From assembly GCA_963851265.1 (NCBI GenBank), contig CAWKNZ010000009.1, forward strand, positions 141,028 to 205,027: a stretch of 64,000 nucleotides of DNA. The letters run 5' to 3'. A program made the position numbers and the translations under genes. The notes beneath the pieces were generated by a model that had not been told where the DNA came from, did not search any database, and saw nothing but the letters and a program-made list of their open reading frames with translations. Numbering within the stretch: the first letter of the stretch is position 1; every line of letters starts with the position of its first letter. Source of the DNA: an uncultured Gemmatimonadales bacterium (GTDB taxonomy: Bacteria > Gemmatimonadota > Gemmatimonadetes > Gemmatimonadales > Gemmatimonadaceae). Positions 5,612 to 24,013 of the stretch are shown here, one piece after another.

Positions 5612-6353
5612 CGCCAGGAGACGCACGCGGAGGCCTCGCCCGGATCGCTGATCGCCTCGACGTCGCGGAGCGGCAAGCACGCACGTCACCGAATCGTGAG
5701 CGCGTCGGCCTCGGGGGTTTCGGCCAAGGTAGGTCCCGGCATCGGCATCCGCGAGCAGGAAGGCATCGCGCGGCGTCAGGACGGGATCGGAAGGACCCGA
5801 CGTCGGTGCAACGACGGTGGCGCGGGACGGCGGTGCCCGACCGAACGACGAGACGCGCGCGACCGGCAACCACGTCGCGATCCCGCTCGACCCGGGTCAT
5901 GTGCACCCGCGAGTCGCGTTGCGCCGGGGGTCGGTCCAGCGTCAACCGCGCGGTGCGACGCGGACCCCTGCGTCCTGACGCGCCGCCACACCGCGTTCAA
6001 GTCGGCACCCGCCGCGCCGAGACTCCGGAACGCGCGGACCCTTCGCACGGCCGCGCATCGTGCGCTGCCCGCGACGCCTGCGTGCGACCCCCTCGTTCGC
6101 TCCTCCGACGCGGTGGGGCCAGCATGCCACGTCCCGGCTGCACCGGGACGCGGTGTGCCGGCCCCGCAATTGGGGGGATCACCGCCATCCGCGCGAGCGC
6201 GATGAATCTCCGTCTGGTGCAGCACCACGATCCCACGCCGACCGCGCACGTCGCACCGCCCGCTCCGCGGTCGGCGGTTCTACCGACGTCGGCGCGCCGA
6301 GTGGACGCAACGCGGGCTCGCGCGTGACGCGGTCGACGGAGGGTGACCGCCCG

Positions 6354-8420
6354 ATGCCTCGCGCGGTCGGCTTCGTGGGGCGCGTTGCGCGACGCGGCCT
6401 CGCCCACGTGCGGCAGGGATTCGGGCAGCCCGCGATGGGACCGACGCGAGCCGAGCAGGCGTTCGAGGACCTACACCTGGCGCGCGAGGAAGCCGAGAGC
6501 ACGGCCGCTCGCCTCCGCACGGTCGCGGACGTGGCCGGCGGCGTCATCCGGGCCGACTCCTTGCCCGCCCTGCACGCGGTGCTCCGCGACGTCTGCGGTC
6601 AGCTGTTCACGTTCGACCGCTTCGCGGTGGTCGCGGGTGAGCCGGTCGGCCCACCCGGCACCCCCGTGCCATTGCGCGCCCTCGGGGACTCCGATCCGTC
6701 CCTGGCCGCTGTCGTCGTCGGCGGGATCACGGTCGCCGGGTGCGGGACCGCGCGGCCCGACTCGTTCTCGACGAGCGCGTCGTCGGTTCTTGCGGCATCG
6801 GACTGCTCGACCCTCGTCAGACCCGTGCTCGGCGACGACGCGGTGCTCGGCTATATCGCCCTGGGCGCCGACCGACCCGACGCCTTCCGAGTGAGCGACG
6901 GCGAGGTGCTCGAAGCGCTTGCCGCGCTGGCGGCCACCGCGATTCGCAACTTGGTGCTCGTCGGCGAGCTGCGGTACTCGCGCGAGGCGTACGCGCACCA
7001 GGCGCTGCACGATCCGCTGACCGGACTTCCCAACCGTGCCGGGCTGCACGAGCACCTCGCGCGGGTGCTGGGCGGCCCGCACCCGGAGCGCGTGAGCGTG
7101 CTCGTCCTCGACCTCGACGGCTTCAAGCGCGTCAACGATTCGTTAGGCCACCCGCAGGGCGACAGCCTGCTGGTGCAGGTCGCGGAGCGCCTGCTCGACG
7201 CCACGCGCGGCAGCGACACGGTCGCGCGACTCGGCGGCGACGAGTTTGCCGTGCTGCTCGAGAACACCCGTGCGCCGGACGACGCCGTCGCGGTCGCCGA
7301 GCGCGTCCTCGGGGCGCTCCGCGCGCCATTCGACCTCGGCGGCGCCGAGGCCATGGTCGGCACGAGCGTGGGTATCGCGTTCAGCGGCGCCGCCGAGGCG
7401 GACCTTCTGGGCGACGCGACGGCTCTGGGCGACGCCCTGCTGCGCGACGCGGACCTCGCCATGTACCGCGCGAAAGAATCGGGCAAGGGGCGATACGTAG
7501 TCTACGAGCCTCACATGCACGCGGAGGCGGTCAGTCGCCTCGAGCGCGAGGCCGATTTACGCGCGGCGATCGAGAAGCGCGAATTCCGCCTGTATTACCA
7601 GCCGATCGTAGCGCTCGAGACTGGGGCGGCGCTCGGCGTGGAAGCGCTGGTCCGCTGGGAGCACCCGCTTCGTGGCCTCGTCCCGCCTGCCGAGTTCATC
7701 CCGCTCGCCGAGGAGACCGGACTCATCGTGCCGCTCGGCCGTTGGGTCCTGGGCGAGGCGTGCCGCCAGGCGCGCGTGTGGGCCGACCACGCGTGGGGGA
7801 CCGACCTCACCGTGACCGTGAACGTGTCGGGCATCCAGCTCTACGACGCCGCGTTCGTCGAGGACGTCCGCCTGGCACTCGCGGCGAGCGGCGTCACGCC
7901 GCAGCGGCTCGTCCTCGAGCTGACCGAAACGGTCATGGTCGACCGACCCGGGCTCGCGCTCGAGCGGTTCAACGCACTCAAGGCGCTTGGCGTGCGGCTG
8001 GCCATCGACGACTTCGGCACGGGCTATTCGGCACTCAGCTATCTGCGCCAGTTTCCGTTCGACGTCCTCAAGATCGACAAGAGCTTCGTGGACGAGGTTG
8101 CCACCCGCGGGCAGGCCGCGACGCTCGCGGCGGCGATCGTCGCGCTCGGCAACGCATTCGCCCTGCGCACGGTGGCGGAGGGCGTCGAGTCGGCCGACCA
8201 GGCCACGGCACTCGGCGAGATCGGCTGCGCGATCGCGCAAGGGTACCATTTCAGCCGACCGCTCGCGGCGGAGGCGGTGACGGCCTGGCTCGCGGCCGAG
8301 CGGGTCGCCCCCGCGCCCGACCCACTCGGCGGGGTCACCGAAACGAGGTGGGCGCGGGAGCCCGCGGGCGGGCGGGCGGCGCCGCTGCGCACCGTGGCGA
8401 CGCGCGGCGAGCTGCCGTAA
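6354..8420 (+). CDS. GAF-GGDEF-EAL diguanylate cyclase/phosphodiesterase
   Basis: HDPLTGLPNR, DLDGFKRVNDSLGH, RLGGDEF, GVEALVRW, IDDFGTGYS, LKIDKSF and AEGVE are all intact; GAF-like region upstream. Start uncertain. Confidence 0.92.
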   Translation: MPRAVGFVGRVARRGLAHVRQGFGQPAMGPTRAEQAFEDLHLAREEAESTAARLRTVADVAGGVIRADSLPALHAVLRDVCGQLFTFDRFAVVAGEPVGPPGTPVPLRALGDSDPSLAAVVVGGITVAGCGTARPDSFSTSASSVLAASDCSTLVRPVLGDDAVLGYIALGADRPDAFRVSDGEVLEALAALAATAIRNLVLVGELRYSREAYAHQALHDPLTGLPNRAGLHEHLARVLGGPHPERVSVLVLDLDGFKRVNDSLGHPQGDSLLVQVAERLLDATRGSDTVARLGGDEFAVLLENTRAPDDAVAVAERVLGALRAPFDLGGAEAMVGTSVGIAFSGAAEADLLGDATALGDALLRDADLAMYRAKESGKGRYVVYEPHMHAEAVSRLEREADLRAAIEKREFRLYYQPIVALETGAALGVEALVRWEHPLRGLVPPAEFIPLAEETGLIVPLGRWVLGEACRQARVWADHAWGTDLTVTVNVSGIQLYDAAFVEDVRLALAASGVTPQRLVLELTETVMVDRPGLALERFNALKALGVRLAIDDFGTGYSALSYLRQFPFDVLKIDKSFVDEVATRGQAATLAAAIVALGNAFALRTVAEGVESADQATALGEIGCAIAQGYHFSRPLAAEAVTAWLAAERVAPAPDPLGGVTETRWAREPAGGRAAPLRTVATRGELP

Positions 8421-8463
8421 CCGCCGGCAGCCGAGGGCGTGTCGGCGGTCGCAGGCGGGTCGA

Positions 8464-9948
8464 CTACGCCGAGTCGGCGCGGCTGCGATCGCGCCCCGTG
8501 GGGAAGCGGCGGTCGAGCTCCCCCTTGCCGGTCCGCACCCACGCATCACGCGTCACGCGGACGATCCGCAACGGGCGCGCGGCGAGTGGGCCTAACAAAT
8601 CCGGGAGGTCGCCGGCCTCCGGCACCGGCTCCACCTCGCCGGCAGTCGACAGGGCCAGCACCAGCGTCCGCCCGTCGGGCGACGACAGCAGGACGTCGGT
8701 GAGCTGCGGCCAGCGCGCACGCACCGCGCGCTCGACGGAAGCGGCGGGCACGAACCGGCCGTTCTCCAGCTTGAAGCTGTCTGCCGTGCGCCCCTCGAAC
8801 GTGTAGGTGCCGTCGAACTCCCGCCTCGCGAGGTCGCCGGTGCGCACCCAGCGCCCGGGTGGCTCGACGCTGATCCCGAGACCTCCGGCCGCGTCGGCCT
8901 CCCACACGCCGAGGCAGGCGTTCGCGCCGCGAAACGCGAGCACGTCGTCGGCGTCGAGGCGGACCTCACAGCCGACTGGGTGACCGAGCGCGCCCGCGTG
9001 CCACGCTCCCGGATCACCCATCGTGATGCCCGGCGAGGCTTCGGTCTGACCGTACCCCACGCGCAGTCGCGTGCCGCGGAGCAGATCGGCGAGTGTCGAG
9101 TCGACCGGCGCCCCACCGATCACCCCGCCGCGCAGCCGGCCTAACAGCGCGCGGCCCTCGTCGCGTTCGGCGAGCAGGCGCAAGGTGTACGGCACGGCGT
9201 GCAGGTGCGTGATCGGATGCTCGGCCGCCACGGCCAGCATGGCCGCGGCGTCGCGCCCCCCCGAGGGGTCGCGCAACAGCTCGGCGCCGGCCAGCAGCGC
9301 GGGGAGCAACTCGAGCACCAGGCCGAACGCGTGATGCCACGGCAGCACCGAGAGGACCACGGCCCCATCCATGGCCAGCAGCGGGGTGTGGCTTGCCAAC
9401 ACCGCTCGCACGTTGGCGTCGGAGAGCGCCACGCGCCGCGGGGCCCCAGTCGTACCACTGGTCTCGAGGAGGAATCGCGCCTCGCGGGTCGGCCCCGAGC
9501 GTGCCGGGCGCGGGATCACGGCAACGTCGGGCGGCGTGCCCGCGCGCTCCGCGGCGACGATCGCGGCAGCCGCCGGGCGGCCTGGTGCGACCACGGCATA
9601 GCGCGCATCGACGAGGTCGAGCAGGGACGCGACGTCGGCGCTGGCCGGCGCGGGCACGAACGTCAGATCGTCCCAGAGGGCCGCGACGAGCAGCATCGCG
9701 AAGCCCGGGCCGGGCGGCAGTGCACACACGACGCGGTCGCCCGGGCCGACGCCGTGCGTCCGCCACCACGCCGTCCACCGGCGCGCACCGGCCCACAGCG
9801 AGGCGGCGGCCACGAGGTCGTCACGCGTCCACAGCAGCGGGAGCGGACGGCCGCGGAGCCGGCGGTAGAGCGCGTCGCGCCACGACGACTCCGGCGCGGC
9901 ACGCTCCGGCGCGAAATCCGTGACCGCAGCATCAGGTCGCACGTCCAT
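8464..9948 (-). CDS. pcl: AMP-forming acyl-CoA ligase, probably the p-coumaroyl-CoA ligase for PYP
   Basis: ETSGTTG P-loop, VLPWHHAFG, GYGQTEASP and RTGDL motifs; divergent from the pyp-tal operon, so substrate is inferred from context. Confidence 0.75.
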   Translation of the reverse strand: MDVRPDAAVTDFAPERAAPESSWRDALYRRLRGRPLPLLWTRDDLVAAASLWAGARRWTAWWRTHGVGPGDRVVCALPPGPGFAMLLVAALWDDLTFVPAPASADVASLLDLVDARYAVVAPGRPAAAAIVAAERAGTPPDVAVIPRPARSGPTREARFLLETSGTTGAPRRVALSDANVRAVLASHTPLLAMDGAVVLSVLPWHHAFGLVLELLPALLAGAELLRDPSGGRDAAAMLAVAAEHPITHLHAVPYTLRLLAERDEGRALLGRLRGGVIGGAPVDSTLADLLRGTRLRVGYGQTEASPGITMGDPGAWHAGALGHPVGCEVRLDADDVLAFRGANACLGVWEADAAGGLGISVEPPGRWVRTGDLARREFDGTYTFEGRTADSFKLENGRFVPAASVERAVRARWPQLTDVLLSSPDGRTLVLALSTAGEVEPVPEAGDLPDLLGPLAARPLRIVRVTRDAWVRTGKGELDRRFPTGRDRSRADSA

Positions 9949-10053
9949 GCCGCGAACGTTACAACCTTAGACCGGCCGGTCCGACAGTCCGAAGCGAAGG
10001 CGCGGCGACGGGCCGAATCGGCCGCGGTCCACCCCCCGCCCCTGTTCGTCGTG

Positions 10054-10389
10054 ATGTCATCCCTCGATGCCCCTCGGCCTGCACCCGCGAGCGCCGGCGC
10101 TCCCGACGCCCTGCACGAGATGGTCGCGAGCCTCGAGGCGCAACTCGTCTCGCTCTACGCAGAGCGCGAAGCCGAGGTCGCCGAGGCCGACACTCTGCGC
10201 GCCGCCGTCGCCAGCCTCGAAGAGCAGGCGCGCGCGTGGTACGCGAGCGTCGAGCGCCTCGGCGGTCGCACCGTCGACGAGGCCGCCGACGCGCTCGTGA
10301 GTTACGAGGCCCAGCTCGATGCGCTCTACGCCGCGGTCGACGCGACCCCCGGCGACGGCGGCAGCGCTCCCGCTTCGACGCCCGCCTGA
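10054..10389 (+). CDS. Hypothetical acidic helical protein with three S(L/Y)E(A/E)QxxxxYA repeats
   Basis: SLEAQLVSLYA, SLEEQARAWYA and SYEAQLDALYA; GC3-rich codons; directly upstream of pyp. Confidence 0.7.
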   Translation: MSSLDAPRPAPASAGAPDALHEMVASLEAQLVSLYAEREAEVAEADTLRAAVASLEEQARAWYASVERLGGRTVDEAADALVSYEAQLDALYAAVDATPGDGGSAPASTPA

Positions 10390-10432
10390 ACCGCACTGCG
10401 TTCACACCACCTCCACCATCCCGACTTCACCC

Positions 10433-10801
10433 ATGTCCTTCGTTCCTCAGGCCGTCATCGACGGCCTCGCCGAGTTCTCGCGCTCCCAGGCCGACGCCCA
10501 GCCGTTCGGTGTCGTCCGCGTCACCGACGAGGGCATCGTCACGCTCTACAACCGCTGGGAATCCGGCCTCGCGGGCGTCGCCATCGAGACCGCCGAGGGC
10601 CGCAACTTCTTCACGCAGATCGCGCCGTGCACCAACAACCGCCTCGTGTTCGGCCGGTTCAAGGACGGCGTGCAGAAGAAGCAGCTCGACTCGGAGTTCA
10701 ACTACACGTTCACGTACAAGATGAAGCCGACCAACGTCGCGCTTCGTCTCTTCCGGCACGAGCCTACGGCGACGAACTGGGTGTTCGTCGGGCTGCGCTG
10801 A
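10433..10801 (+). CDS. pyp: Photoactive yellow protein (PAS-fold blue-light receptor), 122 aa
   Basis: PFGVVRV, LYNRWES, GRNFFTQIAPCTN, YTFTYKMKPT and WVFV. Y39/E43/C66/F93/M97 correspond to Y42/E46/C69/F96/M100 of H. halophila PYP. Confidence 0.95.
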   Translation: MSFVPQAVIDGLAEFSRSQADAQPFGVVRVTDEGIVTLYNRWESGLAGVAIETAEGRNFFTQIAPCTNNRLVFGRFKDGVQKKQLDSEFNYTFTYKMKPTNVALRLFRHEPTATNWVFVGLR

Positions 10802-10823
10802 GCCGCCGCGGAAGAGCCCGGCC

Positions 10824-11279
10824 ATGATCGCCGAACACCTCAGCGTCGCCGCGAACGTCGACCGGCTCGAAGCGCTCCTCGAGACGACGTGCAACGGGGT
10901 GCCCGCCGGCCCGGCCCGTGAGGCGCTCCTCGCGTATGCGCGGCAGAAGCGGGATGGGATGGTGGCGCTCGCCGCCGCGCTCCACGCGGCGGACGACGAG
11001 CCCGAACTCGTCCGCCTGCTCGCCGCGGTGTGGTTGGAGCTGCGCTGCGAGTGGGAGCGGTACAACAACGTGTCGAACTATCAGCTCTTTCATTCGGGGC
11101 ACGACGCCGAGCCCCAGGTCATGGCGGCGGCCGCCACGATGTCGGGCATGCTCACGTGGATCGAGGAGGTCGTTCCCGGGCCGGCCGTCGAACTCATGAC
11201 CGTCGCGACGCTCGACATGCTCGACCGCATTCGCGCGGACGTGGTGGAGCGCGCGTTGACGGCCGGCACCGCGGCCTGA
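10824..11279 (+). CDS. Hypothetical all-helical protein in the pyp operon
   Basis: 151-aa ORF 22 bp after pyp, with typical codon usage and no recognisable motif. Confidence 0.7.
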   Translation: MIAEHLSVAANVDRLEALLETTCNGVPAGPAREALLAYARQKRDGMVALAAALHAADDEPELVRLLAAVWLELRCEWERYNNVSNYQLFHSGHDAEPQVMAAAATMSGMLTWIEEVVPGPAVELMTVATLDMLDRIRADVVERALTAGTAA

Positions 11280-11291
11280 CCAGGCGCCTTC

Positions 11292-12185
11292 GTGGTAGAC
11301 ACCGTCAGCTACACGCCGCGCTTTGCCTGGGCGATGGTGGCCGCACCGGCCGCCACGGGGAGCGCCGTCGTCGCAACCAACGGGCCCGTAACCGGCGGGC
11401 CCGCGCAGGCGGGGCCGCCGAACGGCGCGGCGCTCGCGGAACTCGCGGCCGGGCTCGAGCGGAGCCGCGAGCGCGTGGAGACGCTGACCAACAGCGCGAC
11501 CACGGTACTCTGCCTCACCTCGGTCGTGCACACGCAGCTCGCGGACGTGGGCGCGCGCGCGGCCGACGTGAGCGGCGCGGCCGCGCGCGTGGCCGAGCAG
11601 AGCCGCGCTACGGCCACCGCGGCCGCGGAGATTCGCGCCCTGGTCGATGACGCGCGCGCGGCGGTTGCGGCGCTGGCCGGTCACGCGCGCGACATCGAGC
11701 ACGTGAGCACGCGCTTGAACGTGCTCGCCGTCGAGGCGCGCTTCGTCGGACTCAACGCGGCCATCGAGGCGGCGCGCGCCGGCGACGCGGGCCGAACCTT
11801 CGCGGTGGTGGCCGACAAGGTCCGCGAACTCGCCGACGGGGCATCCGACGCCGCGACGCAGATCATCGGCCGCCTCGGGCGCATCCGCGACGACGCGCTG
11901 CAGTCCGCGGCCGTGATGGAGCGCGCCGGCGTGTCGGTCGGCGCGATCGACGCGTTCACCGCCGGCGTGGCCGACGCCGCGGCGGCGCAGGAGGCGGGCA
12001 CCGCCGAGATCACGAGCAGCCTAACGCAGGTGTCGGGCGCGGTCGACGAGATCGTCCGTGCGGTAGAGGACATCACCGAAGTCGGCATGGTGCTCGGAGA
12101 CGGGACCGCCGAGAATCTCGCGCTCGCCGGCGCACTCGGCGCCGGCGCGGCGGCTTCCGATCCCGCGCCAGCGAGCGACTCGTGA
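11292..12185 (+). CDS. Soluble methyl-accepting chemotaxis (MCP) signalling-domain protein
   Basis: Hairpin-tip motif LNAAIEAARAGDAGRTFAVVADKVRELA with heptad helices on both sides; no TM or sensor domain seen. Start may be 11292 or slightly downstream. Confidence 0.85.
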   Translation: MVDTVSYTPRFAWAMVAAPAATGSAVVATNGPVTGGPAQAGPPNGAALAELAAGLERSRERVETLTNSATTVLCLTSVVHTQLADVGARAADVSGAAARVAEQSRATATAAAEIRALVDDARAAVAALAGHARDIEHVSTRLNVLAVEARFVGLNAAIEAARAGDAGRTFAVVADKVRELADGASDAATQIIGRLGRIRDDALQSAAVMERAGVSVGAIDAFTAGVADAAAAQEAGTAEITSSLTQVSGAVDEIVRAVEDITEVGMVLGDGTAENLALAGALGAGAAASDPAPASDS

Positions 12186-13861
12186 CCGCATCGCTCCGCG
12201 ACGTCCCGCGGGCGATCGCGCCCGGTGGCGAGGGAGACGCGGGCACGACGACGGTGGACCTGGGCGGACACGTCACGCCGGCCGACATCTACGCCGTCGC
12301 CGTCCGCGGGGCGCCGCCGCGAATCGGGCCCGACGCGCGGGCTCGGATGGAGGCGTCGGCGGAATACCTGGCACGGTGCGTCGACGAGCGGCGGCTGGTG
12401 TACGGCGTCACGACCGGCTACGGCCCGCTCGCGCGGCACCATGTCGGGCCGGAGCACGCCGCGACGCTCCAGCAGAACCTCATCTATCACCTCGCTTCGG
12501 GCGTCGGCGCGCCGCTCTCGCCGGCGCACACGCGTGCGCTGATGGCGGCGCGCGTCGCGAGCCTGGCCCGCGGCTACTCCGGCGTTGGGCGCGCGACCGC
12601 CGACCTGCTGCTCGCGTGCCTCACGCGCGGCGTCACGCCCGTTGTCCCCGAGCGGGGCACGGTGGGGGCGAGTGGTGACCTGACGCCGCTCGCCCACGTG
12701 GCGCTCGTGCTCATCGGCGAGGGGCGGGCCGCGTACCGCGGCGGCGTCCTGCCGGGGGCCGACGCGCTTCGGCTGGCGGGGCTCGCGCCGGTGGCGCTCG
12801 GGCACAAGGAGGGGCTCGCGTTGGTGAACGGCACGTCGGCGATGACGGGGATCGCCGCCGTGAACGCCGAGCGTGCGCGCCGGCTCGCGGAGCTGGTCGC
12901 GCGCCTCGCGGTGCTGCACGCCGAGGTTCTGGGGGGGCACGTCGAAGCATGGGACGCGCGCTTCGGGCGCGCGCGGCCGCACCCCGGGCAACGCGCGGCG
13001 CACGCGCGACTGCTGCGACTCGCGCGCGGGAGCGGCCGCCTAACGCCGTCGGTGCAGCCGCCGCCGCGGCTCGACGCGCGGAGCGAGGCGACCGGACTGT
13101 TCAGCGCGCCCGAGCCGCCGCAGGACCCGTACACGATCCGGTGCGTTCCGCAGGAGCTCGGCGCCGCTCTCGACGTGCTCGCCTTCCACGCCGGCGTGGT
13201 GGGAACGGAGCTCAACAGCGCCACCGACAATCCGCTCGTCTTCGCCGACGGCGCGGACGACCCGGATGGCGCGGTGTTGCACGGCGGCAACTTCTACGGC
13301 CAGCACGTCGCGTTCGCGAGCGACGCGCTCGCGATGGCGGTGGTCAAGCTCGCGGCCTGGAGTGAGCGGGCGCTCGCGCGGCTCACCAATCCGGCCTACA
13401 ACAAGGGGTTGCCGGCGTTTCTGCACGGCGGAGCGCCGGGGCTGACGAGCGGTTTGATGGGAGCGCAGGTCACGGCGACGGCACTCGTCGCGGAGATGCG
13501 CACCGGTGCGGTCCCTGCGTCGATCCAGACGATCCCGACGAACAACGACAATCAGGACGTCGTCACGATGGGTACGATCGCCGCTCGCAAGGCGAGCGGG
13601 CTGCTCGACCTCGCGTGGCACGTGCTGGCGATCCACGCGATCGCCGCCGCGCAGGCGTCGGAGTGCCGGGCGCGCGAGGGCGGCGCGCGGGCGCCCGGCG
13701 ACGCGGGCTTCTCCTCCGCGAGTGCCGCGCTCTGGTCGGCGGTACGCGGCGCGGTCGCACCGCTCGACACGGACCGCCCCCTGTCCGACGACATCATGCG
13801 CCTCGCCGAGGCGCTGGAGCACGACGACGCGCTGCTCGGTGCGAGCCCACTCCTGACGTAG
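12182..13861 (+). CDS. tal: MIO-dependent aromatic amino acid ammonia-lyase, tyrosine ammonia-lyase type
   Basis: VYGVTTGYG, GTVGASGDL (MIO ASG), LVNGT, QDPYTIRC and HGGNF; specificity segment NLIYHLASG has the His-Leu pair typical of TAL; GTGA overlap with the MCP gene. Confidence 0.88.
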   Translation: MTASLRDVPRAIAPGGEGDAGTTTVDLGGHVTPADIYAVAVRGAPPRIGPDARARMEASAEYLARCVDERRLVYGVTTGYGPLARHHVGPEHAATLQQNLIYHLASGVGAPLSPAHTRALMAARVASLARGYSGVGRATADLLLACLTRGVTPVVPERGTVGASGDLTPLAHVALVLIGEGRAAYRGGVLPGADALRLAGLAPVALGHKEGLALVNGTSAMTGIAAVNAERARRLAELVARLAVLHAEVLGGHVEAWDARFGRARPHPGQRAAHARLLRLARGSGRLTPSVQPPPRLDARSEATGLFSAPEPPQDPYTIRCVPQELGAALDVLAFHAGVVGTELNSATDNPLVFADGADDPDGAVLHGGNFYGQHVAFASDALAMAVVKLAAWSERALARLTNPAYNKGLPAFLHGGAPGLTSGLMGAQVTATALVAEMRTGAVPASIQTIPTNNDNQDVVTMGTIAARKASGLLDLAWHVLAIHAIAAAQASECRAREGGARAPGDAGFSSASAALWSAVRGAVAPLDTDRPLSDDIMRLAEALEHDDALLGASPLLT

Positions 13862-13930
13862 ACCGGCGCCGGCGACGGTCGGCGCGTTCGGCGCTCGCGC
13901 CGTGCGCGATCTCCTCAATTCTTCCGCTGA

Positions 13931-15235
13931 GTGTCTCACCACCTCGACGTCCCGCGCCTTCCGAGCGCAGACCGCTGTCCGACCGCACCGATGCGTGCGG
14001 TGATGGACGACTCTCGCGCCCGCGACGACGCACGTCACGATCACTCGCCGACGTCGCGCCCGATCGCGCCCGTCGGTCCGCTCCGCATCGACGTGGCGAC
14101 CACGATCGGGCAGTTCGAACGTCTCGAGGGCGAGTGGTCGGCCCTGCTGGCGCGCGTACCGGGCGCGCTGCCGTTCGCTACGTACGACTGGGCGCGGGCG
14201 TGGTGGGAGCATCTGCGGCGCGACGGCCGCTGGACGCGCGACGCGCTCTGCGTGTTCGCCGTCCGGACTGCCGCGGGCGACCCGGTCGCGTTCGCGGCCT
14301 ACATGCGCACGGCCTACCGCGTGCTCGGCCTGCCCGTCGCCAGGATCGTGCAGCCGTTCGGGGCCGATCCGAACCTCACCGAAGTGCGCGGGATGCTCGT
14401 CGCGCCCGAGCACGAGGCCGCGGTAGTCGCGGCCATCGACGCCCACCTGCGCGGCGGGCGCGCATGCGACTGGGTGCGCTGGGGCGGACTCACGCGGGAC
14501 GGTGCGGCGCTCGCCACGCTCGCGTCACGCGATGGCGCGGTGGTGGACCGAGTGCTGCCGACCTTCGTGCTGGCGCTCCCCGACACGTGGGACGAGTTCC
14601 GCCGCACGCGCCCGCGCAACGTGCGCGAGTCTCTCCGGAAGTGCTACAAGCTTCTCGAGCGCGACGGCCATGCGTGGGAGTTCCGGGCCCTCGACACCGG
14701 CCCCGCGGTCGCGGCGGCGCTCGACGGATGGTTCGACCTGCACGGCCGCCGTGCGGCACTGACCGAGACGTCGGTCCGGCATCCGGATTACTTCGCCGTG
14801 CCCGGCGCGCGGGCGTTCGTGGCCGACGTCGTGGAGCGCATGGGGCGGCGCGGCGGCGTGCGCATGTTCCAGCTCCAAATCGGCGCCGACGTCGTCGCCA
14901 TGCGACTCGGCTTCGTCGTGGGCGACAGTCTGTACCTGTACTACTCGGGCTACGATCCCGCGTGGAAGGCCTACAGCGTGATGACCACGGTGGTCGCCGA
15001 GTCGATCCGGTACGCGATCGAGCACGGAATCCGCACCGTGAACCTGTCGAGCGGCGCCGACCAGTCCAAAGCGCGGTGGCGCCCGAGCGAGGTGGCCTAC
15101 GCCGACGCGGTCGCCATCCGCCCCGGCCGGCGCGCGCACCTCGCCCACCGCGCGTTCACCGCGTTGCGGGCGCGGACGGATCGCCGCGATGCCCCTCTTC
15201 CGCCTGCGGCGTCGGAGGCCGCGTCCGATGCCTGA
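13931..15235 (+). CDS. GNAT family protein, CelD/BcsL (Acetyltransf_6) type
   Basis: EWSALL...PFATYDWARAWW, LPDTWDEF, LYYSGYDP and SKARW motifs. Start may be 13991 or 14003. Confidence 0.82.
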   Translation: MSHHLDVPRLPSADRCPTAPMRAVMDDSRARDDARHDHSPTSRPIAPVGPLRIDVATTIGQFERLEGEWSALLARVPGALPFATYDWARAWWEHLRRDGRWTRDALCVFAVRTAAGDPVAFAAYMRTAYRVLGLPVARIVQPFGADPNLTEVRGMLVAPEHEAAVVAAIDAHLRGGRACDWVRWGGLTRDGAALATLASRDGAVVDRVLPTFVLALPDTWDEFRRTRPRNVRESLRKCYKLLERDGHAWEFRALDTGPAVAAALDGWFDLHGRRAALTETSVRHPDYFAVPGARAFVADVVERMGRRGGVRMFQLQIGADVVAMRLGFVVGDSLYLYYSGYDPAWKAYSVMTTVVAESIRYAIEHGIRTVNLSSGADQSKARWRPSEVAYADAVAIRPGRRAHLAHRAFTALRARTDRRDAPLPPAASEAASDA

Positions 15236-16094
15236 ACCGCTCGTGTCCATCGTGATCCCGACGTTCCGCCGCGAGATGATGCTCGTTGACGCGATCCGAT
15301 CGGTGCTCTCCCAGTCCGGCGTGCGCGTCGAGGTGATCGTGCTCGACGACAGCCCGGAGGGATCGGCGGCGGCTGCCGTCGCGGGCTGCGCCGACGCCCG
15401 GGTGCGCTACGTGCACCGGGCCGTACCGTCCGGGGGACGTCCGGCCGTCGTGCGGAACGACGGCCTCTCCCTCGCCGGCGGGAAGTACGTGCACTTTCTC
15501 GACGACGACGACGTGCTCGCCGAAGGCGCGCTCGCGGCCACCGTGGGCGCGCTCGAAGCCGCTCCGCACGCCGGGGTCGCGATCGGCCTCGTCGTTCCGT
15601 TCGGCGACGACCCCGTCGCCCTCGCGCGGGAACAGGCGTACTTCGGCGCGGCGACGCAGCGCCTGCGCGCGATCCGCGCGCGGCTCGCGCTCGTGGCGGA
15701 GATGCTGTTCCAGAAAACGCCGCTCGTGAACTCGTCGTGCACCATCCGACGGACGTGTGCGGTCGCGGTCGGGGGCTACACGCCGACCATCCCCATGAAC
15801 GAGGACGTGGATTTCTACCTGCGCGCGGTCCGACGCGGCGGCTTCGTGTTGGTGGACGTGCCGGTCGTCCACTATCGTGTCGGCCAGCCGTCGCTCATGC
15901 ACTCGCTGACCGACTTTTCGGTGCTGGCGGAGGCGTACGGGATGATCCACCAGCAGTACCGGCGCGAGCACGGCGCGATCGAGTTCACCCTGCTGCGCGC
16001 GTACGGCCTCGCGCTCCGGCTCGCGGGCCGCGTCCGCGCGCGCCGGCATGCGGCTGCGGGGCTGGTCCACGCCGCGCCGCGCGTCGCGGGCTGA
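15228..16094 (+). CDS. Glycosyltransferase family 2
   Basis: VSIVIPTF, VLDDS, RNDGL, FLDDDD and EDVDF; 8-nt overlap with the upstream GNAT gene. Confidence 0.88.
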   Translation: MPEPLVSIVIPTFRREMMLVDAIRSVLSQSGVRVEVIVLDDSPEGSAAAAVAGCADARVRYVHRAVPSGGRPAVVRNDGLSLAGGKYVHFLDDDDVLAEGALAATVGALEAAPHAGVAIGLVVPFGDDPVALAREQAYFGAATQRLRAIRARLALVAEMLFQKTPLVNSSCTIRRTCAVAVGGYTPTIPMNEDVDFYLRAVRRGGFVLVDVPVVHYRVGQPSLMHSLTDFSVLAEAYGMIHQQYRREHGAIEFTLLRAYGLALRLAGRVRARRHAAAGLVHAAPRVAG

Positions 16095-19575: not shown

Positions 19576-20292
19576 ATGCCCGCCCCTGCGAAGTCGAATC
19601 CCGCTGCTGGCCGTCCCACCACCCCGGCCGGCGCCTCGGCGCGGGGGCGCGCGTCCCGGACGCCGGACGCACCCCCGCGGACCCTGCTCCGGCTCTATCG
19701 GGATGCGGTTCGGCGGAGCCGGGCAGCCGGGCGGCCGGTGAGCGTGCGCTTCATCGTCGACCCGACTGGCGCGGCGGCGGTTGACCGGTCCTCCCGGGCC
19801 GACGAGGCGCCCCGGCCGGCGTCCCCGCCGACAGGACCGACCGCCGCGGTCGAGGCGTACCCGGTCGAACCAGCGGCCGAGCCGGACGCGGCGCTACGGA
19901 GCGCGCTCGACGCCGCGCGTGCGAGGGGGGAGCGGCGCGCCGCCGAGATCCTGGCCGGCGCCGACATGCTCAGCGCCGACCAGTTCGCGAAGCTGCTCGG
20001 GACGTCGCGCGTGACGGTGAACACGCGGCGGCAGCGCCGGGAGGTGCTCGCGCTCGACGGCGCGAAGCGCGGCTTCCGCTTCCCGGCGTGGCAGATCGAT
20101 CGCGAGGGCAAGCCGTTCGCGGCACTCCCGGCCCTTTATGACCGACTCGGCGGCAGCGCGTGGGCGGTCTACCGCTTCCTCGTGCAGCCGCACCCCGAGC
20201 TCGACGGGCTCACCGGGCGCGAGGCGCTCGCGCGGGGCCGGGCCGCGCAGGCCGTCGCGGCCGCGGAGAGCGTCGGGCGCGACTTCCGATAA
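19576..20292 (+). CDS. Putative antitoxin (HTH plus MbcA/Xre-C-like domain) for the RES toxin
   Basis: HTH LSADQFAKLLGTSRVTVN, FRFPAWQ and HPELDGLTGREAL; directly upstream of the RES gene. Confidence 0.7.
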   Translation: MPAPAKSNPAAGRPTTPAGASARGRASRTPDAPPRTLLRLYRDAVRRSRAAGRPVSVRFIVDPTGAAAVDRSSRADEAPRPASPPTGPTAAVEAYPVEPAAEPDAALRSALDAARARGERRAAEILAGADMLSADQFAKLLGTSRVTVNTRRQRREVLALDGAKRGFRFPAWQIDREGKPFAALPALYDRLGGSAWAVYRFLVQPHPELDGLTGREALARGRAAQAVAAAESVGRDFR

Positions 20293-20347
20293 GCACGGCG
20301 AGCCCGCGCGCCTGGGCCCTGGGTTGGTCGCCAGCGTGACGCCCTGA

Positions 20348-20956
20348 ATGGCGGGCCCGCGGCCCACCGCGGCGTTCGCCCGGGTGCCGCTCGAGATCGC
20401 GACGGGGCCGGTCGGGGTGCGGTTCGGCCGTATCTACCTCGACCGCTACCCCGACCCGCTCGGGTATGGCAAGGCGCCGAGCCGCTTCAGCGACCCGCGC
20501 CGGCGTGTCGCGGCGCATCGGTTCGGGGTGCTCTACCTGGGCGAGAGCCTGCACGTGTGCTTCGCGGAGGCCGTGCTGCGCGACCGGCGCGACGGCGCGG
20601 TCGGGGACCTCCCCGTCGAGGAGGCAGAACTGCGTGCGCGGCGCTACGCGACGCTTGCCGTGGCCGCCCCGCTGCGGCTGGTCGACCTGCGTGAGAGCTG
20701 CGCGCTCCGCATGGGCGTACCGACGGACGTGGCACGTGCCGCGCGGCAGTCGCTCGCGCGGGCGTGGTCGGCGGCGTTCTACGCGCACCCCGCGCAGCCC
20801 GACGGTGTGATCTACCCGTCGCGCCTGACGGGGCAGACGAACGTGGCGGTGTACGATCGCGCAGTCCCCAAACTCGCGGTCGCGCGGGTACAGCAGCTGC
20901 TCGGGGCCGCGGGCCTGGCGGACGTGCTCACCAACCTCAGAGTCGCGCTCGTCTGA
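20348..20956 (+). CDS. RES domain toxin (NAD+ phosphorylase family)
   Basis: SRFSDP, VLYLGE...FAE and GVIYPSR supply the R, E and S residues. Confidence 0.85.
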   Translation: MAGPRPTAAFARVPLEIATGPVGVRFGRIYLDRYPDPLGYGKAPSRFSDPRRRVAAHRFGVLYLGESLHVCFAEAVLRDRRDGAVGDLPVEEAELRARRYATLAVAAPLRLVDLRESCALRMGVPTDVARAARQSLARAWSAAFYAHPAQPDGVIYPSRLTGQTNVAVYDRAVPKLAVARVQQLLGAAGLADVLTNLRVALV

Positions 20957-20980: not shown

Positions 20981-23014
<2,034 letters not shown>

Positions 23015-23131
23015 GCGTGATCTCGGCGGGTGGGGAATCCACTCGGCGGCCGGCGGCCGCGGGGGCACGGCGGCTCGCCGCGTGCTCTGTACGTTGCTGT
23101 TCCGGCACGTGTACCGACAAGGATCGCCGGC

Positions 23132-23194
23132 CTTCTCGACTCCGTCCGCGGCGAGCACGGCGATCCGGATCCCGTCGAGTGGCTTCTCGAACAT
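23132..23194 (-). pseudogene. Remnant N-terminus of a PfpI/DJ-1 family protein
   Basis: MFEKPLDGIRIAVLAADGVEK matches the typical PfpI N-terminus, then similarity stops. Confidence 0.45.
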
Positions 23195-24013
23195 CGCGCT
23201 GGCCCTCCTGGCGCTCGCGCGCCGACGTGCTCGGCCCTTGCCGCTGCTCGCCCCCGCCGCCGGCGCGCCGACGGGGACCGAGCGTTCGCCGCGGGGCCGC
23301 ACGCAGTCTGCTCGCGGGGTCCGGGCGCGTCCATCAGAAGCGCGCGAACCCACACTTCCCGAACACCCGACACGGGCCCGGCGGTAGACGTGGCGGCGAC
23401 GATGGCCGCCGCCGCGCTCTCGGCCTTGCCAATGACCGCGGTGACCGAGGTGGCGCAGATTCATGCCAGTTCGCGGCGAACTCGTCGTCGGTCATCTCCT
23501 CGGCCGCTCTCCGCCCCCCTTTCGCGTACGGCTACTGGCCGACGCACCATCACCCCGCCCTCGCCCGTGGCGCTCAGGCCGCACACGGTGCAGGAAATCG
23601 TCCACGGGCGGGCCCACTCAGCCGTGGACCGGGCCAAGCGCCTCCTGCTGACGACCACAGCTTCGGGCCTCGTAGCCTCATGGAGCGGGAACGCACGTGG
23701 GCCGGCGCCCGCGCGTGGACACCCACGCGAGCTCGTCGTTTGCCGGGTGCTCAGCGCCCGTTTCGATCGCGGTATCGGTGCCTAACGGTGAGACGCCGCT
23801 CGGATCTCGAACGCTGATGCGATGTTAGTACGCATCTCGTCAGTGTTCGAGCCGTCGCACGACGGCCTGACCCCCCAGACCCGGCCGCGCCCCACCCCTC
23901 GTCGGCGCGCCGGCACCGCCGCGGAATGGGGCGTGCGAACGACCGTCCAGCGTGCACACCCGTCGGCCGACGGTCGTGCTCGTTCGGGCCCACGTTTCCG
24001 GAGCATCTTCGTC

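Follow-up and report, generated by a model that had tools for sequence, protein, structure and literature searches.

The six-gene locus described here lies in a window of 64,000 nucleotides (the whole stretch of DNA that was analyzed) from an uncultured Gemmatimonadales bacterium. It probably represents a module that feeds blue-light input into a chemosensory (Che-type) pathway, a reading to which we assign a probability of about 0.6. The common denominator of such loci would be photoactive yellow protein (PYP), a helical domain and a component of chemosensory arrays. The six genes and one neighbor are the following:

6060..8420, plus strand: GAF-GGDEF-EAL protein, neighbor (EAL E 3.5e-74, GGDEF E 1.5e-38, weak GAF)
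8464..9948, minus strand: adenylate-forming ligase, 494 aa (PF00501, E 4e-32), divergent from the operon
10054..10389, plus strand: repeat protein, 111 aa, with three S-[LY]-E-[AE]-Q-x4-Y motifs
10433..10801, plus strand: PYP, 122 aa (TIGR02373, E 4e-28)
10824..11279, plus strand: 151-aa protein of a helical family without annotation, candidate direct PYP partner and transducer
11292..12185, plus strand: short soluble methyl-accepting chemotaxis protein (MCP), 297 aa (MCPsignal, PF00015)
12182..13861, plus strand: tyrosine ammonia-lyase (TAL, MIO enzyme), 559 aa (PF00221, E 2e-158)

All six open reading frames are present as described in the initial annotation, and its intergenic gaps of 43, 22 and 12 bp as well as the 4-bp GTGA overlap between the MCP stop and the TAL start were confirmed. 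The genes look coding, since their third-position GC content (GC3) amounts to 0.85-0.93 in a genome with 74% GC. The earlier designation of the operon as self-contained holds for the chromophore supply and not for signaling, because no CheA, CheW or CheY gene is found inside the cluster and the respective genes lie in other parts of the genome. The same gene order recurs in a genome from a different family within this order (G121, locus L038), which harbors the ligase and the series of repeat protein, pyp, 151-aa homolog, an HDOD gene, MCP and TAL. Part of it, namely repeat protein, pyp, 151-aa homolog and MCP, is retained in the Planctomycetota MAGs L075 and L086, which speaks against a chance arrangement. 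The genes are conserved together. A genome of the same genus (G001) has kept the ligase, pyp and the 151-aa gene at the locus, and MCP, TAL and repeat protein are all absent from it.

The 151-aa protein gave no match in Pfam and NCBIfam searches. Its AF2 model is all-helical with six helices (pLDDT 97), and Foldseek retrieved no PDB match at E<=1e-3. A search of 1.84 billion proteins provided 84 representatives of the family at E<=1e-3; its motif is W-L-E-L-R-x-E-W-x-R-x-N and W77 is invariant. When 185,579 species genomes were scanned at the DNA level on the basis of motifs, 47 stretches (45 distinct) were obtained, and 40 encode a family member. In 32 of the latter, from four phyla, the next reading frame upstream on the same strand encodes PYP (Gemmatimonadota 17/21, Spirochaetota 6/8, Myxococcota 6/7, Planctomycetota 3/3, Bdellovibrionota 0/1), and on metagenome contigs the family gene directly follows pyp in 41 of 51 family loci, tallies that overstate independence because the counted sequences are related. 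The stop-to-stop spacing ranges from 423 to 613 nt in 27 genome loci and from 1206 to 1573 nt in the five loci with long fusions. No PYP was seen at eight of the 40 genome loci and ten of the 51 metagenome loci; contig ends account for some of them, and L045, L063, L083, L109 and L129 have upstream room. In L083, a photolyase/cryptochrome-like gene is located upstream of the family member.

The PYP of the locus reaches 98 bits against TIGR02373, which is under the cut-off of 143 bits, and it matches Ppr-PYP in the PDB (1mzu, E 2e-22). An alignment to the PYP of Halorhodospira halophila and Ppr documents the retention of Tyr42, Glu46, Cys69 (Cys66 in the protein itself), Phe96, Tyr98 and Met100 and the substitutions Thr50 to Ala and Arg52 to Val. 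The low profile score and the Ala/Val at positions 50/52 count against the reading. In the phylogenetic tree, this PYP and 33 others encoded next to the 151-aa family (34 in total) are separated from ten non-adjacent paralogs of the same lineage by a split with a support of 100/100. It appears to represent a subfamily that co-occurs with the 151-aa protein and that would correspond to clade B of Xing et al.

Domain fusions connect the family with chemosensory arrays. Among 41 longer members scanned against Pfam, nine contain a CheW-like domain, eight of which pass the cut-off, and one carries MCPsignal. The latter (P0026), which is also 55% identical to the MCP of the locus, is the sole MCP fusion and stems from one metagenome contig of 2,328 bp; there is no second case among the 51 metagenome loci. 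Related genomes have, in place of the MCP, a CheA-like P3-P4-P5 protein with an N-terminal copy of the 151-aa helical domain, and this arrangement rather than an MCP is found in most Gemmatimonadales loci. The profile of 26 such fusion proteins (~490 aa) matches P3-P5 of Escherichia coli CheA with an E value of 7.8e-21, and the AF2 model of the fusion (pLDDT 84.5) matches CheA in Foldseek (6s1k_A, E 1.6e-17). Altogether, 25 of the 32 loci with pyp and the family contain an MCP, the CheA-like protein or a long family fusion.

The proposal of a chemoreceptor without sensor was borne out, as MCPsignal (residues 104-261, 65 bits) is the only domain found in the 297-aa MCP, in which no sensor, TM or HAMP domain was detected. 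Homologs of 253-322 aa form a family that conserves the hairpin tip of the MCP (LNAAIEAARAG...FAVVADKVRELA); the family profile matches Thermotoga maritima TM1143 (2ch7, E 1e-24) as well as Tm14, a soluble receptor (3g67, E 4.6e-22). The MCP ranks second-weakest among the ten MCPsignal matches of the genome, which also contains matches to two CheA, CheW, three strong CheR and two flagellins; one of the two CheA loci adjoins flagellin genes. An MCP is encoded behind the 151-aa gene in G000, G121/L084, L048, L075 and L086, i.e., in two phyla, and within ~2.5 kb upstream of pyp in three of six Leptospiraceae loci. Judged by gene content, the MCP is a variable and not a universal element of the locus. 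It is dispensable for the pair of PYP and 151-aa protein, as exemplified by G001, and its overlap with TAL ties it into the operon.

Complex modeling of PYP and the 151-aa protein, as suggested in the initial annotation, resulted in a median score of 0.66 (runs 0.60, 0.74, 0.66), compared with 0.00 for the best of three controls. Among 157 solved complexes, 116 attain the mark applied, and among 215 mismatched pairs 2 do so, a calibration that is only rough because the alignments were custom-made. The runs share at least 97% of their contacts with a partner pLDDT of at least 85. In this model, which was computed without chromophore, the invariant Trp is set against the chromophore face of PYP, and the predicted interface extends over Cys66 and the opening of the chromophore pocket. 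Conservation of the PYP interface among the 34 adjacent PYPs is 0.96 versus 0.73 (0 of 10,000 random sets as high) and may also reflect photochemistry, because the same residues line the chromophore pocket; 11 of its 16 positions differ from the paralog consensus. The partner interface includes W77, N81, N85, Y86, S107 and G92, six of the 19 most conserved positions after Met1. It is not significantly more conserved than the remainder of the protein (0.48 versus 0.41; 799 of 10,000 random sets as high), and the highly conserved residues E72, R74, E76, R79 and E114 fall outside. Synteny and the complex model together make the 151-aa helical protein a candidate direct binding partner of PYP.

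The putative enzymes for the chromophore are encoded at both ends of the locus. The best PDB match of the lyase is Rhodobacter sphaeroides TAL (2o6y, E 1.5e-121). Its selectivity stretch (..IYHLASGVG..) has the tyrosine-specific His-Leu switch of TAL (..VHHLASGVG..; H89F mutant 2o78: ..VHFLASGVG..), the Ala-Ser-Gly MIO triad is present, and orthologs with 62-66% identity occur in corresponding pyp clusters. In G001 (97% completeness), a genome-wide search with the TAL query found no aromatic lyase. The PDB matches of the ligase are only distant, namely adenylation domains of NRPS (E 9e-14). Its orthologs adjoin pyp in G001, G121, G144 and G298 (47-67% identity), and matches at E<1e-30 are found in 16 of 40 loci with the 151-aa family. 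The genomic context makes it a candidate p-coumarate-CoA ligase (pCL).

Based on family knowledge, TAL would supply p-coumarate, which the divergent ligase would activate for attachment to Cys66 of PYP. The 151-aa protein would bind PYP on the side where the chromophore cysteine and the Tyr98/Met100 loop are located, the part that changes on illumination. Domain fusions and operon membership suggest that it may hand the state of PYP to the sensor-less soluble MCP encoded 12 bp downstream. The MCP could enter CheA/CheW arrays encoded elsewhere in the genome, so that light would bias motility or another Che-controlled output. Co-conservation, the tie to a PYP subfamily, the fusions with array proteins and the controlled complex model fit the original idea of a Che-like pathway that receives its input from PYP via a small partner. 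This idea is partly supported, as comparative evidence across phyla and the model favor the 151-aa protein in this role; it has to be restricted with respect to the MCP, which is not universal, and the repeat protein, which is connected by synteny.

A c-di-GMP output has reportedly been proposed for the PYP of Idiomarina, and PYP, with or without the 151-aa protein, might accordingly modulate the GAF-GGDEF-EAL enzyme next to the locus, the MCP being a lineage-specific passenger. The GGDEF, EAL and DDFGTG motifs of this enzyme are intact, and in each of the two genomes of the genus, its gene shows synteny with ligase, pyp and 151-aa gene (69% identity in G001). Moreover, another PYP paralog of the genome adjoins a homologous GGDEF-EAL gene (49% identity), a PYP paralog and GGDEF-EAL share one open frame of 765 aa in G004, and GGDEF/EAL, present in 29 of 113 predicted operons, is the commonest signaling neighbor of pyp in the survey by Dohmen et al. 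(2025, PMC12826048). However, the gene lies outside the operon past the divergently transcribed ligase, no GGDEF-EAL match was found at 40 family loci of other taxa (only in two chance loci without the family), and the known fusions of the 151-aa domain involve MCP and CheA-like proteins, whereas the Pfam scan found GGDEF or EAL in none of the 41 long members. We therefore regard this scenario as unlikely; the neighbor is probably not part of the module and possibly a second output.

The location of the modeled interface over Cys66 and the pocket mouth would also suit a maturation or chromophore-loading factor, a role that the 151-aa protein, possibly together with the repeat protein, could fulfill instead of transduction, e.g., by holding apo-PYP open for thioester formation. 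The 151-aa gene clusters with TAL and ligase, and some Gemmatimonadales have a second family copy between these two genes (L051, L052, L053, L067). This explanation is quite improbable, given that, for the PYPs of other species, TAL and pCL suffice to obtain the holoprotein in E. coli (PMC12826048), that the CheA-like and MCP fusions are hard to square with it, and that G001 retains the 151-aa gene although the search found no TAL there. The absence of the MCP from the G001 locus and its replacement by other genes in most relatives could finally mean that its adjacency to PYP is meaningless. The MCP would then be an orphan soluble receptor for something else, e.g., via its ends or partners encoded elsewhere, and the 151-aa protein would act on another target. 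This is very doubtful in view of the recurrence of the MCP behind the 151-aa gene in two phyla and near pyp in half of the six Leptospiraceae loci, of close homologs of both proteins on equal-sized contigs (3,335 and 2,234 bp) in protein tables, and of the stop-start overlap that places the MCP within the operon.

The motifs of the repeat protein, which is predicted to be helical, are at residues 26, 54 and 83. The public gene call starts at 10120, resulting in 89 instead of 111 aa, and GC3 is 0.85. Homologs span 76-170 aa, and none has a Pfam domain. They are located directly upstream of pyp in 19 of the 32 loci with pyp and the 151-aa family (Gemmatimonadota, Planctomycetota, Myxococcota) and in none of the six Leptospiraceae loci. 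Its envisaged function as signal go-between was not substantiated, this synteny being the only link to signaling, and the protein may rather be a conserved accessory.

The adjacency of PYP and a sensor-less chemoreceptor is already in print, and it has been proposed that clade-B PYP acts on the receptor in trans (Xing, Gumerov and Zhulin 2022, PMC9664959). As in the current study, the clade-B loci harbor a stand-alone PYP with Tyr42, Glu46 and Cys69 that is under the TIGR02373 cut-off, beside TAL and such a receptor, and the order of the Gemmatimonas phototrophica pyp locus (Data Set S3) agrees with that of the Gemmatimonas-like genomes investigated here. The receptors discussed therein (Leptospira) are membrane-bound, whereas the MCP reported here is soluble. 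In the neighborhood table of PMC9664959, the entry "None" stands for the genes of the 151-aa family, of the CheA-like fusion and of the repeat protein; "CheW" does not occur in its main text, and the passages considered here neither identify nor discuss these partner genes. The CetA/CetB system of Campylobacter jejuni energy taxis likewise consists of a PAS sensor and a separate, co-encoded chemoreceptor working as one receptor (PMC9664959). However, CetB binds FAD and CetA is membrane-anchored, in contrast to PYP and a soluble MCP, and the current locus encodes a third protein of a new family, modeled as PYP binder, between sensor and receptor.

For stand-alone PYPs, the sole partner demonstrated by experiment in the literature that we consulted is PBP of Rhodobacter capsulatus (RCAP_rcc01067), a protein of ~140-150 residues that is encoded beside pyp and binds light-activated Rc-PYP (Kim et al., 10.1101/2021.06.01.446672). 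By its description, with N-terminal helices and beta-sheets (Jpred), it is distinct from the all-helical 151-aa protein, and Rc-PYP is a UV-A sensor of clade A, unlike the PYP reported here. The 151-aa family, which follows pyp in several phyla, is a strong candidate for the long-sought signaling partner of PYP. MCP-PYP fusions are known from 12 cases, e.g., Nitrincola alkalilacustris, with PYP at the C-terminus of the MCP (PMC12826048) rather than in separate genes with a partner between them; Table 2 of the same study, based on 113 predicted pyp operons, contains no MCP. The PYP-family photoreceptor Ppr of Rhodocista centenaria has been reported to be connected to Che proteins (PMC2993699), but it is a PYP-bacteriophytochrome-kinase fusion, in contrast to a PYP that stands alone and has a helical partner. 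The pyp-pcl-tal operon of H. halophila also combines PYP with the two enzymes for synthesis and activation of its chromophore (PMC12826048). It comprises three genes without a signaling partner, whereas the locus presented here has a divergent ligase and interleaves the MCP and two proteins without annotation.

The PYP cluster of the window comprises six genes, and a further gene is located just upstream of it, past the ligase:

6060-8420: GAF-GGDEF-EAL gene (Pfam)
8464-9948, minus strand: AMP-binding ligase (PF00501, Pfam)
10054-10389, plus strand: repeat protein, no family match (Pfam, NCBIfam)
10433-10801, plus strand: PYP (TIGR02373, E 4e-28, 98 bits)
10824-11279, plus strand: 151-aa protein, no family match (Pfam, NCBIfam)
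11292-12185, plus strand: MCP, with MCPsignal as the sole Pfam domain
12182-13861, plus strand: aromatic amino-acid lyase (Pfam)

Coordinates, strands and spacing of the six ORFs in the initial annotation were all reproduced, including three gaps (43, 22 and 12 bp) and an overlap of 4 bp (GTGA). Their third-position GC ranges from 0.85 to 0.93 in a window with a GC content of about 74%, and the host genome (4.6 Mb, 12 contigs) is 94% complete. A scan of positions 8000-15500 yielded no promoter-like and one terminator-like site, a result that is not above shuffled sequences and uninformative in this GC-rich lineage. No RNA datasets covering 9900-13900 are listed, and only one soil DNA run contained a small fraction of the words of this stretch. 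Tandem DNA repeats were not found in the gene of the repeat protein, whose repetition exists at the protein level only. Inspection by eye of the 30 nt upstream of nine genes revealed no obvious Shine-Dalgarno-like purine run.

The window PYP matches the PYP domain of Ppr (1mzu; E 2e-22) and the PYP of H. halophila (E 1e-19). The chromophore-binding Cys69 is present (APCTNN opposite APCTDS in H. halophila PYP and APCTNI in Ppr), and this cysteine is invariant in all 16 aligned PYPs of the lineage. Tyr42 and Glu46, the hydrogen-bond partners of the chromophore phenolate in PYP, are present as well (YNRWES opposite YNAAES of the H. halophila chain 1gsv). The alignment also documents the conservation of Phe96, Tyr98 and Met100 and the replacement of Thr50 by Ala and of Arg52 by Val, which, judged from the sequence, may shift the tuning of the photoreceptor. 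The lyase is nearest to the TAL of R. sphaeroides (2o6y; E 1.5e-121) and exhibits the Ala-Ser-Gly triad (MIO), with GTVGASGDLTPLAH opposite the MIO site of 2o6y. It also harbors the His-Leu selectivity switch, reading Y-H-L-A-S-G versus H-H-L-A-S-G in 2o6y and H-F-L-A-S-G in 2o78, the H89F mutant entry by which the switch position (His89 of R. sphaeroides TAL) was fixed. A second lyase elsewhere in the host genome is just 45-47% identical. The ligase has the adenylate-forming fold (PF00501) and is syntenic with pyp in the related genomes G001, G121, G144 and G298, and it is a candidate p-coumarate-CoA ligase (pCL); every NCBIfam equivalog score is far under its cut-off, and the closest PDB matches are NRPS adenylation domains.

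With its 98 bits, the window PYP does not reach the curated TIGR02373 cut-off of 143.05 bits. TIGR02373 matches occur in 14 of 61 related genomes, none of whose PYPs reaches this value. The clade-B PYP of G. phototrophica is likewise given as '< cutoff' in the part of Xing et al. (PMC9664959) consulted here, and the cut-off appears to have been set for clade A. The strong matches represent three PYP types, and the 151-aa gene accompanies the window type only. In a phylogenetic tree confined to these two groups, the 34 PYPs adjoining the 151-aa family are split from 10 non-adjacent paralogs of the same lineage with a support of 100/100.

Two further PYP paralogs are present in the host genome. 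One (contig C3:181322-181660; locus L014, 8290-10415) is followed, after about 400 bp, by a GGDEF-EAL gene whose product is 49% identical to the GGDEF-EAL protein of the window; in genome G004 (C1:1875967; L018) a single open frame of 765 aa spans a PYP paralog and GGDEF-EAL and would represent a fusion of the two. The other, third type (APCTKVQQFYG; C7:481380-481703; L013, 8330-8764) is kept in G001, G003, G004, G014, G022 and G024, and tblastn detects none of the six window proteins in its vicinity. For some of its copies the open frame is long (451-536 aa), possibly as mere GC-rich read-through.

The gene downstream of pyp belongs to a hitherto unnamed helical family. An exhaustive HMMER search over 1.84 billion representative proteins retrieved 84 proteins with E<=1e-3, of which 26 have E<=1e-10; two giant eukaryote-like entries among the 84 (P0053, P0091) are probably unrelated. 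The family occurs in several forms, namely as stand-alone protein of about 150 aa, as two or three tandem copies, and as N-terminal domain of longer proteins. Its signature is D-E-x-E-L-x3-A-x2-W-L-E-L-R-x-E-W-x-R-x-N-x3-N-Y with an invariant Trp (W77 in the window protein). AlphaFold2 predicts six helices for the 151-aa protein (45 sequences; pLDDT 97). A Foldseek comparison of this model with the PDB gave no match at E<=1e-3, the ESM Atlas provided no usable match, and Pfam at E<=0.5 found no recurrent family across 45 members (best DUF3422, in 3 of 45). A wide VIA-align comparison returned Hrd1 and HscB at best (Z 8.9) and the ligand-binding domain of McpS with Z 7.5, a range that is usual for helical bundles, and no relationship was drawn from it.

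The genomic distribution of the family was determined with a degenerate DNA pattern back-translated from the family motif, which was scanned against one genome per species (185,579 species); six-frame ORFs of the pattern regions were then searched with hidden Markov models from our own alignments. A pattern from another family alignment had returned 28 stretches in genome contigs, none of them confirmed, and the degenerate motif pattern was used instead. The latter recovered 47 stretches that represent 45 distinct contig regions, 40 of which encode a family member and five of which are chance DNA matches. In 32 of the 40 family regions, the nearest upstream ORF of that strand encodes a PYP.

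Family regions with pyp directly upstream, by phylum as given in the record titles
Gemmatimonadota: 17 of 21
Spirochaetota (Leptospiraceae): 6 of 8
Myxococcota: 6 of 7
Planctomycetota: 3 of 3
Bdellovibrionota: 0 of 1 (contig ends at the gene)

Among the family loci without pyp, L071 and L073 are cut by contig ends, L047 is located on a contig of 1.9 kb only, and L051 and L052 are second copies beside the ligase; in L045, L063 and L083 no PYP is found upstream despite sufficient room. In L083 (2224-3729), from a metagenome-assembled Leptospira sp., a photolyase/cryptochrome-like gene (FAD_binding_7, E 7e-42) precedes the family member in place of pyp; the family may pair with another blue-light receptor. 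A metagenome scan identified 56 loci, 51 of which belong to the family, with pyp directly upstream in 41 of the 51; this set includes one locus pair on the same contig and overlaps in lineage with the genome set, and the two are not independent. The family was detected in five of 401 sampled genomes of the phylum.

The repeat protein is encoded directly upstream of pyp in 19 of the 32 loci with pyp and a family member, 25 of the 32 additionally harbor an MCP, a protein of the CheA-like kind or a long fusion of the family, and among all 40 family loci TAL is present in 23 and HDOD in 15. G121, which belongs to another family of the same order, harbors the ligase on the minus strand, followed by a repeat protein (170 aa), pyp, the 151-aa homolog, HDOD, a 236-aa MCP and TAL, and the Gemmatimonas-like genomes G174 and G298 (65% GC) share a repeat protein (183 aa), pyp, the 151-aa homolog, HDOD, a 506-aa protein, TAL and the ligase on the minus strand. 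A HAMP-MCP is located upstream of pyp in three of six Leptospiraceae loci. The synteny of pyp, partner homologs and MCP, which the initial annotation had named as a check, is borne out for the pyp-partner pair in the 32 of 40 regions, and the window order of repeat protein, pyp, family member and MCP recurs in the planctomycetal loci L075 and L086. Extra stand-alone family copies by the ligase, apart from the one that follows pyp, were observed in the Gemmatimonadales loci L051, L052, L053 (3765-4244) and L067 (3738-4289). In most Gemmatimonadales clusters an HDOD protein is encoded between the 151-aa gene and the gene for the CheA-like protein or MCP (e.g., L037, 9714-10997; L038, 10316-11341); it is missing from the window operon. 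At the end of the pyp cluster of G298, a response-regulator-PP2C (SpoIIE) phosphatase lies directly beside the ligase (L037, 15408-16607, minus strand) and is a possible output element.

A survey of 41 longer family members with Pfam documents fusions with chemosensory modules. P0026 (454 aa), a protein 55% identical to the window MCP, carries a C-terminal MCPsignal domain, the only such case among the 41, and no further MCP fusions were found among the 51 metagenome family loci. A CheW-like C-terminal domain is present in nine of the 41 longer members, eight of them over the cut-off. The fusions of about 490 aa are CheA-like, as their 26-sequence profile matches residues 276-647 (P3-P5) of E. 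coli CheA (8c5v_A) with an E-value of 7.8e-21, and Foldseek aligns the AlphaFold2 model of such a protein (pLDDT 84.5) with the CheA chain of a core signalling unit (6s1k_A; E 1.6e-17). Accordingly, they have the P3-P4-P5 core in common with CheA, whereas the P1 Hpt domain with its phospho-accepting His is absent and the ATP lid is incomplete, with a P4 gap of about 43 residues in the alignment. Their N-terminus is a domain of the 151-aa type with the invariants E, E, W, R, N, Y, E and P; it is not an Hpt domain, because it contains no invariant His. An Hpt/P1 identity of the 151-aa domain itself, considered since the domain replaces P1-P2 in the CheA-like proteins, was rejected for the lack of a conserved His.

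The window MCP scores 65.2 bits against a Pfam threshold of 34.6 for MCPsignal, and the hairpin tip LNAAIEAARAG..FAVVA.KVRELA is invariant or almost so in 14 homologs. Pfam, the sole method applied for transmembrane segments, found no sensor, TM or HAMP module, and residues 1-47 are of low complexity and poorly conserved. This MCP belongs to a small set of soluble receptors of 253-322 aa with a variable, low-complexity N-terminus. Searched as a profile, this set matches TM1143 (E 1e-24) and Tm14, a soluble receptor (E 4.6e-22). A Pfam screen of the first 35 kb of the window detected no CheA, CheW, CheR or flagellin. Elsewhere in the host genome, CheA is encoded at two loci, one on contig C3 and one on C2, and CheW and three strong CheR matches are present as well; two flagellin matches adjoin the che locus on C3. 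MCPsignal matches number ten in the whole genome.

Complex modelling, suggested by the initial annotation, was performed for PYP (16-row alignment) and the 151-aa protein (45 rows). The three runs scored 0.60, 0.74 and 0.66 (median 0.66), compared with 0.00 for the best of three controls, and they agree in at least 97% of contacts with a partner pLDDT of at least 85. In calibration, the pass mark admitted 116 of the 157 complexes with a solved structure and 2 of the 215 mismatched pairs; this applies only approximately to our own alignments. Since no comparable solved complex is known to us, memorisation by the predictor is unlikely to explain the pass. On the PYP side, the predicted interface comprises T61, C66 (the chromophore cysteine), N68, N69, L71, F89-T92, T94-P99 and N101; it rings the pocket mouth and takes in the equivalents of Tyr98 and Met100. 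Its conservation among the 34 adjacent PYPs is 0.96 versus 0.73 for the remaining positions (0 of 10,000 random sets as high), although the model lacks the chromophore and pocket residues are also conserved for photochemistry, and 11 of 16 positions differ from the paralog consensus. The partner side includes W77, N81, N85, Y86, G92 and S107 and as a whole shows no significant excess in conservation over the remaining positions (0.48 versus 0.41; 799 of 10,000 random sets as high). The top-conserved partner residues E72, R74, E76, R79 and E114 are located outside the modelled interface and could make a second contact.

The gene identities, their conservation, the fusions and the controlled structural prediction are the observations from which we infer a signalling route, including its binding events, light dependence, co-transcription and physiological output. 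TAL and the ligase would provide the chromophore, and the light-responsive face of PYP would bind the helical protein. The latter would pass the signal to a component of the chemosensory array, i.e., the soluble MCP in the window and, in relatives, a CheA-like scaffold bearing the same helical domain, with output via CheA, CheW and CheY encoded elsewhere. In its general form, this reading regards the 151-aa family as a direct transducer of clade-B PYPs and as an unrecognised array input domain. It would dock on the chromophore face via the invariant W-x3-N / S motif and relay the light signal in one of two ways: as an unfused adaptor for a soluble MCP, or, in CheA-like proteins reduced to the kinase core, as an N-terminal domain in place of P1-P2. 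We assign it a probability of roughly 0.45, slightly below even odds.

Three less probable rival explanations compete with this transducer reading. PYP could act on c-di-GMP via the neighbouring GGDEF-EAL enzyme. The equivalent locus of G001, a genome of the same genus, consists of GGDEF-EAL (69% identity), ligase (67%), pyp (71%) and the 151-aa homolog (39%), followed by an unrelated gene. It is devoid of repeat protein, MCP and TAL, and an aromatic lyase was not found anywhere in G001 with the window query. The 151-aa protein could alternatively have a role in maturation, to which its proximity to chromophore genes would be congenial and for which the fusions with MCPsignal, CheW-like and CheA-like modules would have to be explained separately. 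Finally, the adjacency of the MCP might be without meaning; the varied setting of the MCP among the loci is compatible with this, and the recurrent order in Planctomycetota speaks against it.

PYP is a textbook model photoreceptor. Its signalling partner is called unknown or unidentified in the consulted parts of recent papers (PMC12826048, PMC13250908), and the transducer reading, if true, would for the first time connect a stand-alone PYP to the control of motility by a molecular route. According to the consulted part of Xing, Gumerov and Zhulin 2022 (PMC9664959), clade-B PYPs often adjoin chemoreceptors without sensor domains, and an analogy to CetA/CetB is drawn. The proposal of the initial annotation that PYP signals to the MCP, perhaps via small proteins, is hence partly anticipated in print, and it gains partial support from the helical partner, its fusions and the modelled interface. 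The layout, which the initial annotation did not know as characterised, is already contained in the G. phototrophica row of the same paper; three genes are given there as 'None', and these correspond to the 151-aa family, the CheA-like fusion and the repeat protein. What is new is the family of helical partners, together with its fusions and the modelled interface. The consulted part of Dohmen et al. 2025 (PMC12826048) reports 12 MCP-PYP fusions, its Table 2 contains no MCP among 113 predicted pyp operons, and its main text, beyond which supplements may list more, has no occurrence of 'CheW', 'HDOD' or 'unknown function'. A full-text literature search, whose reach excludes most subscription journals, came upon no account of either the 151-aa family or the CheA-like fusion.

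The window resembles CetA/CetB in that pyp (a PAS sensor) and a sensor-less MCP are encoded in the same direction within a cluster and are separated by a single gene. CetA/CetB is based on direct contact between PAS protein and a membrane-anchored receptor; in the window MCP no membrane module was detected by Pfam, and the PYP contact that was modelled is the one with the 151-aa protein. The one experimentally shown neighbouring PYP partner known to us, PBP of R. capsulatus, is described as alpha+beta in the consulted part of Kim et al. (bioRxiv 10.1101/2021.06.01.446672) and differs, by this description only, from the all-helical model of the 151-aa protein. The locus and its relatives offer a concrete, testable candidate for a PYP partner, a small helical protein that trails one PYP subfamily in at least four phyla. 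The same cluster appears to be present in cultured species of Gemmatimonas, which makes pull-downs, structures and knockouts feasible. In the CheA-like relatives the helical domain takes the place of P1-P2 and the ATP lid is shortened, which would represent a new wiring from sensor to array.

Two observations concern the region downstream of the pyp cluster. A 184-aa ORF without Pfam match is followed by a RES-domain protein (19738-20956; PF08808, E 7e-18), an arrangement typical of Xre-RES toxin-antitoxin systems. About 7 kb downstream of the cluster, the minus strand encodes a hybrid histidine kinase (20981-23302) in which Pfam recognises two PAS domains, HisKA, HATPase and a receiver domain.
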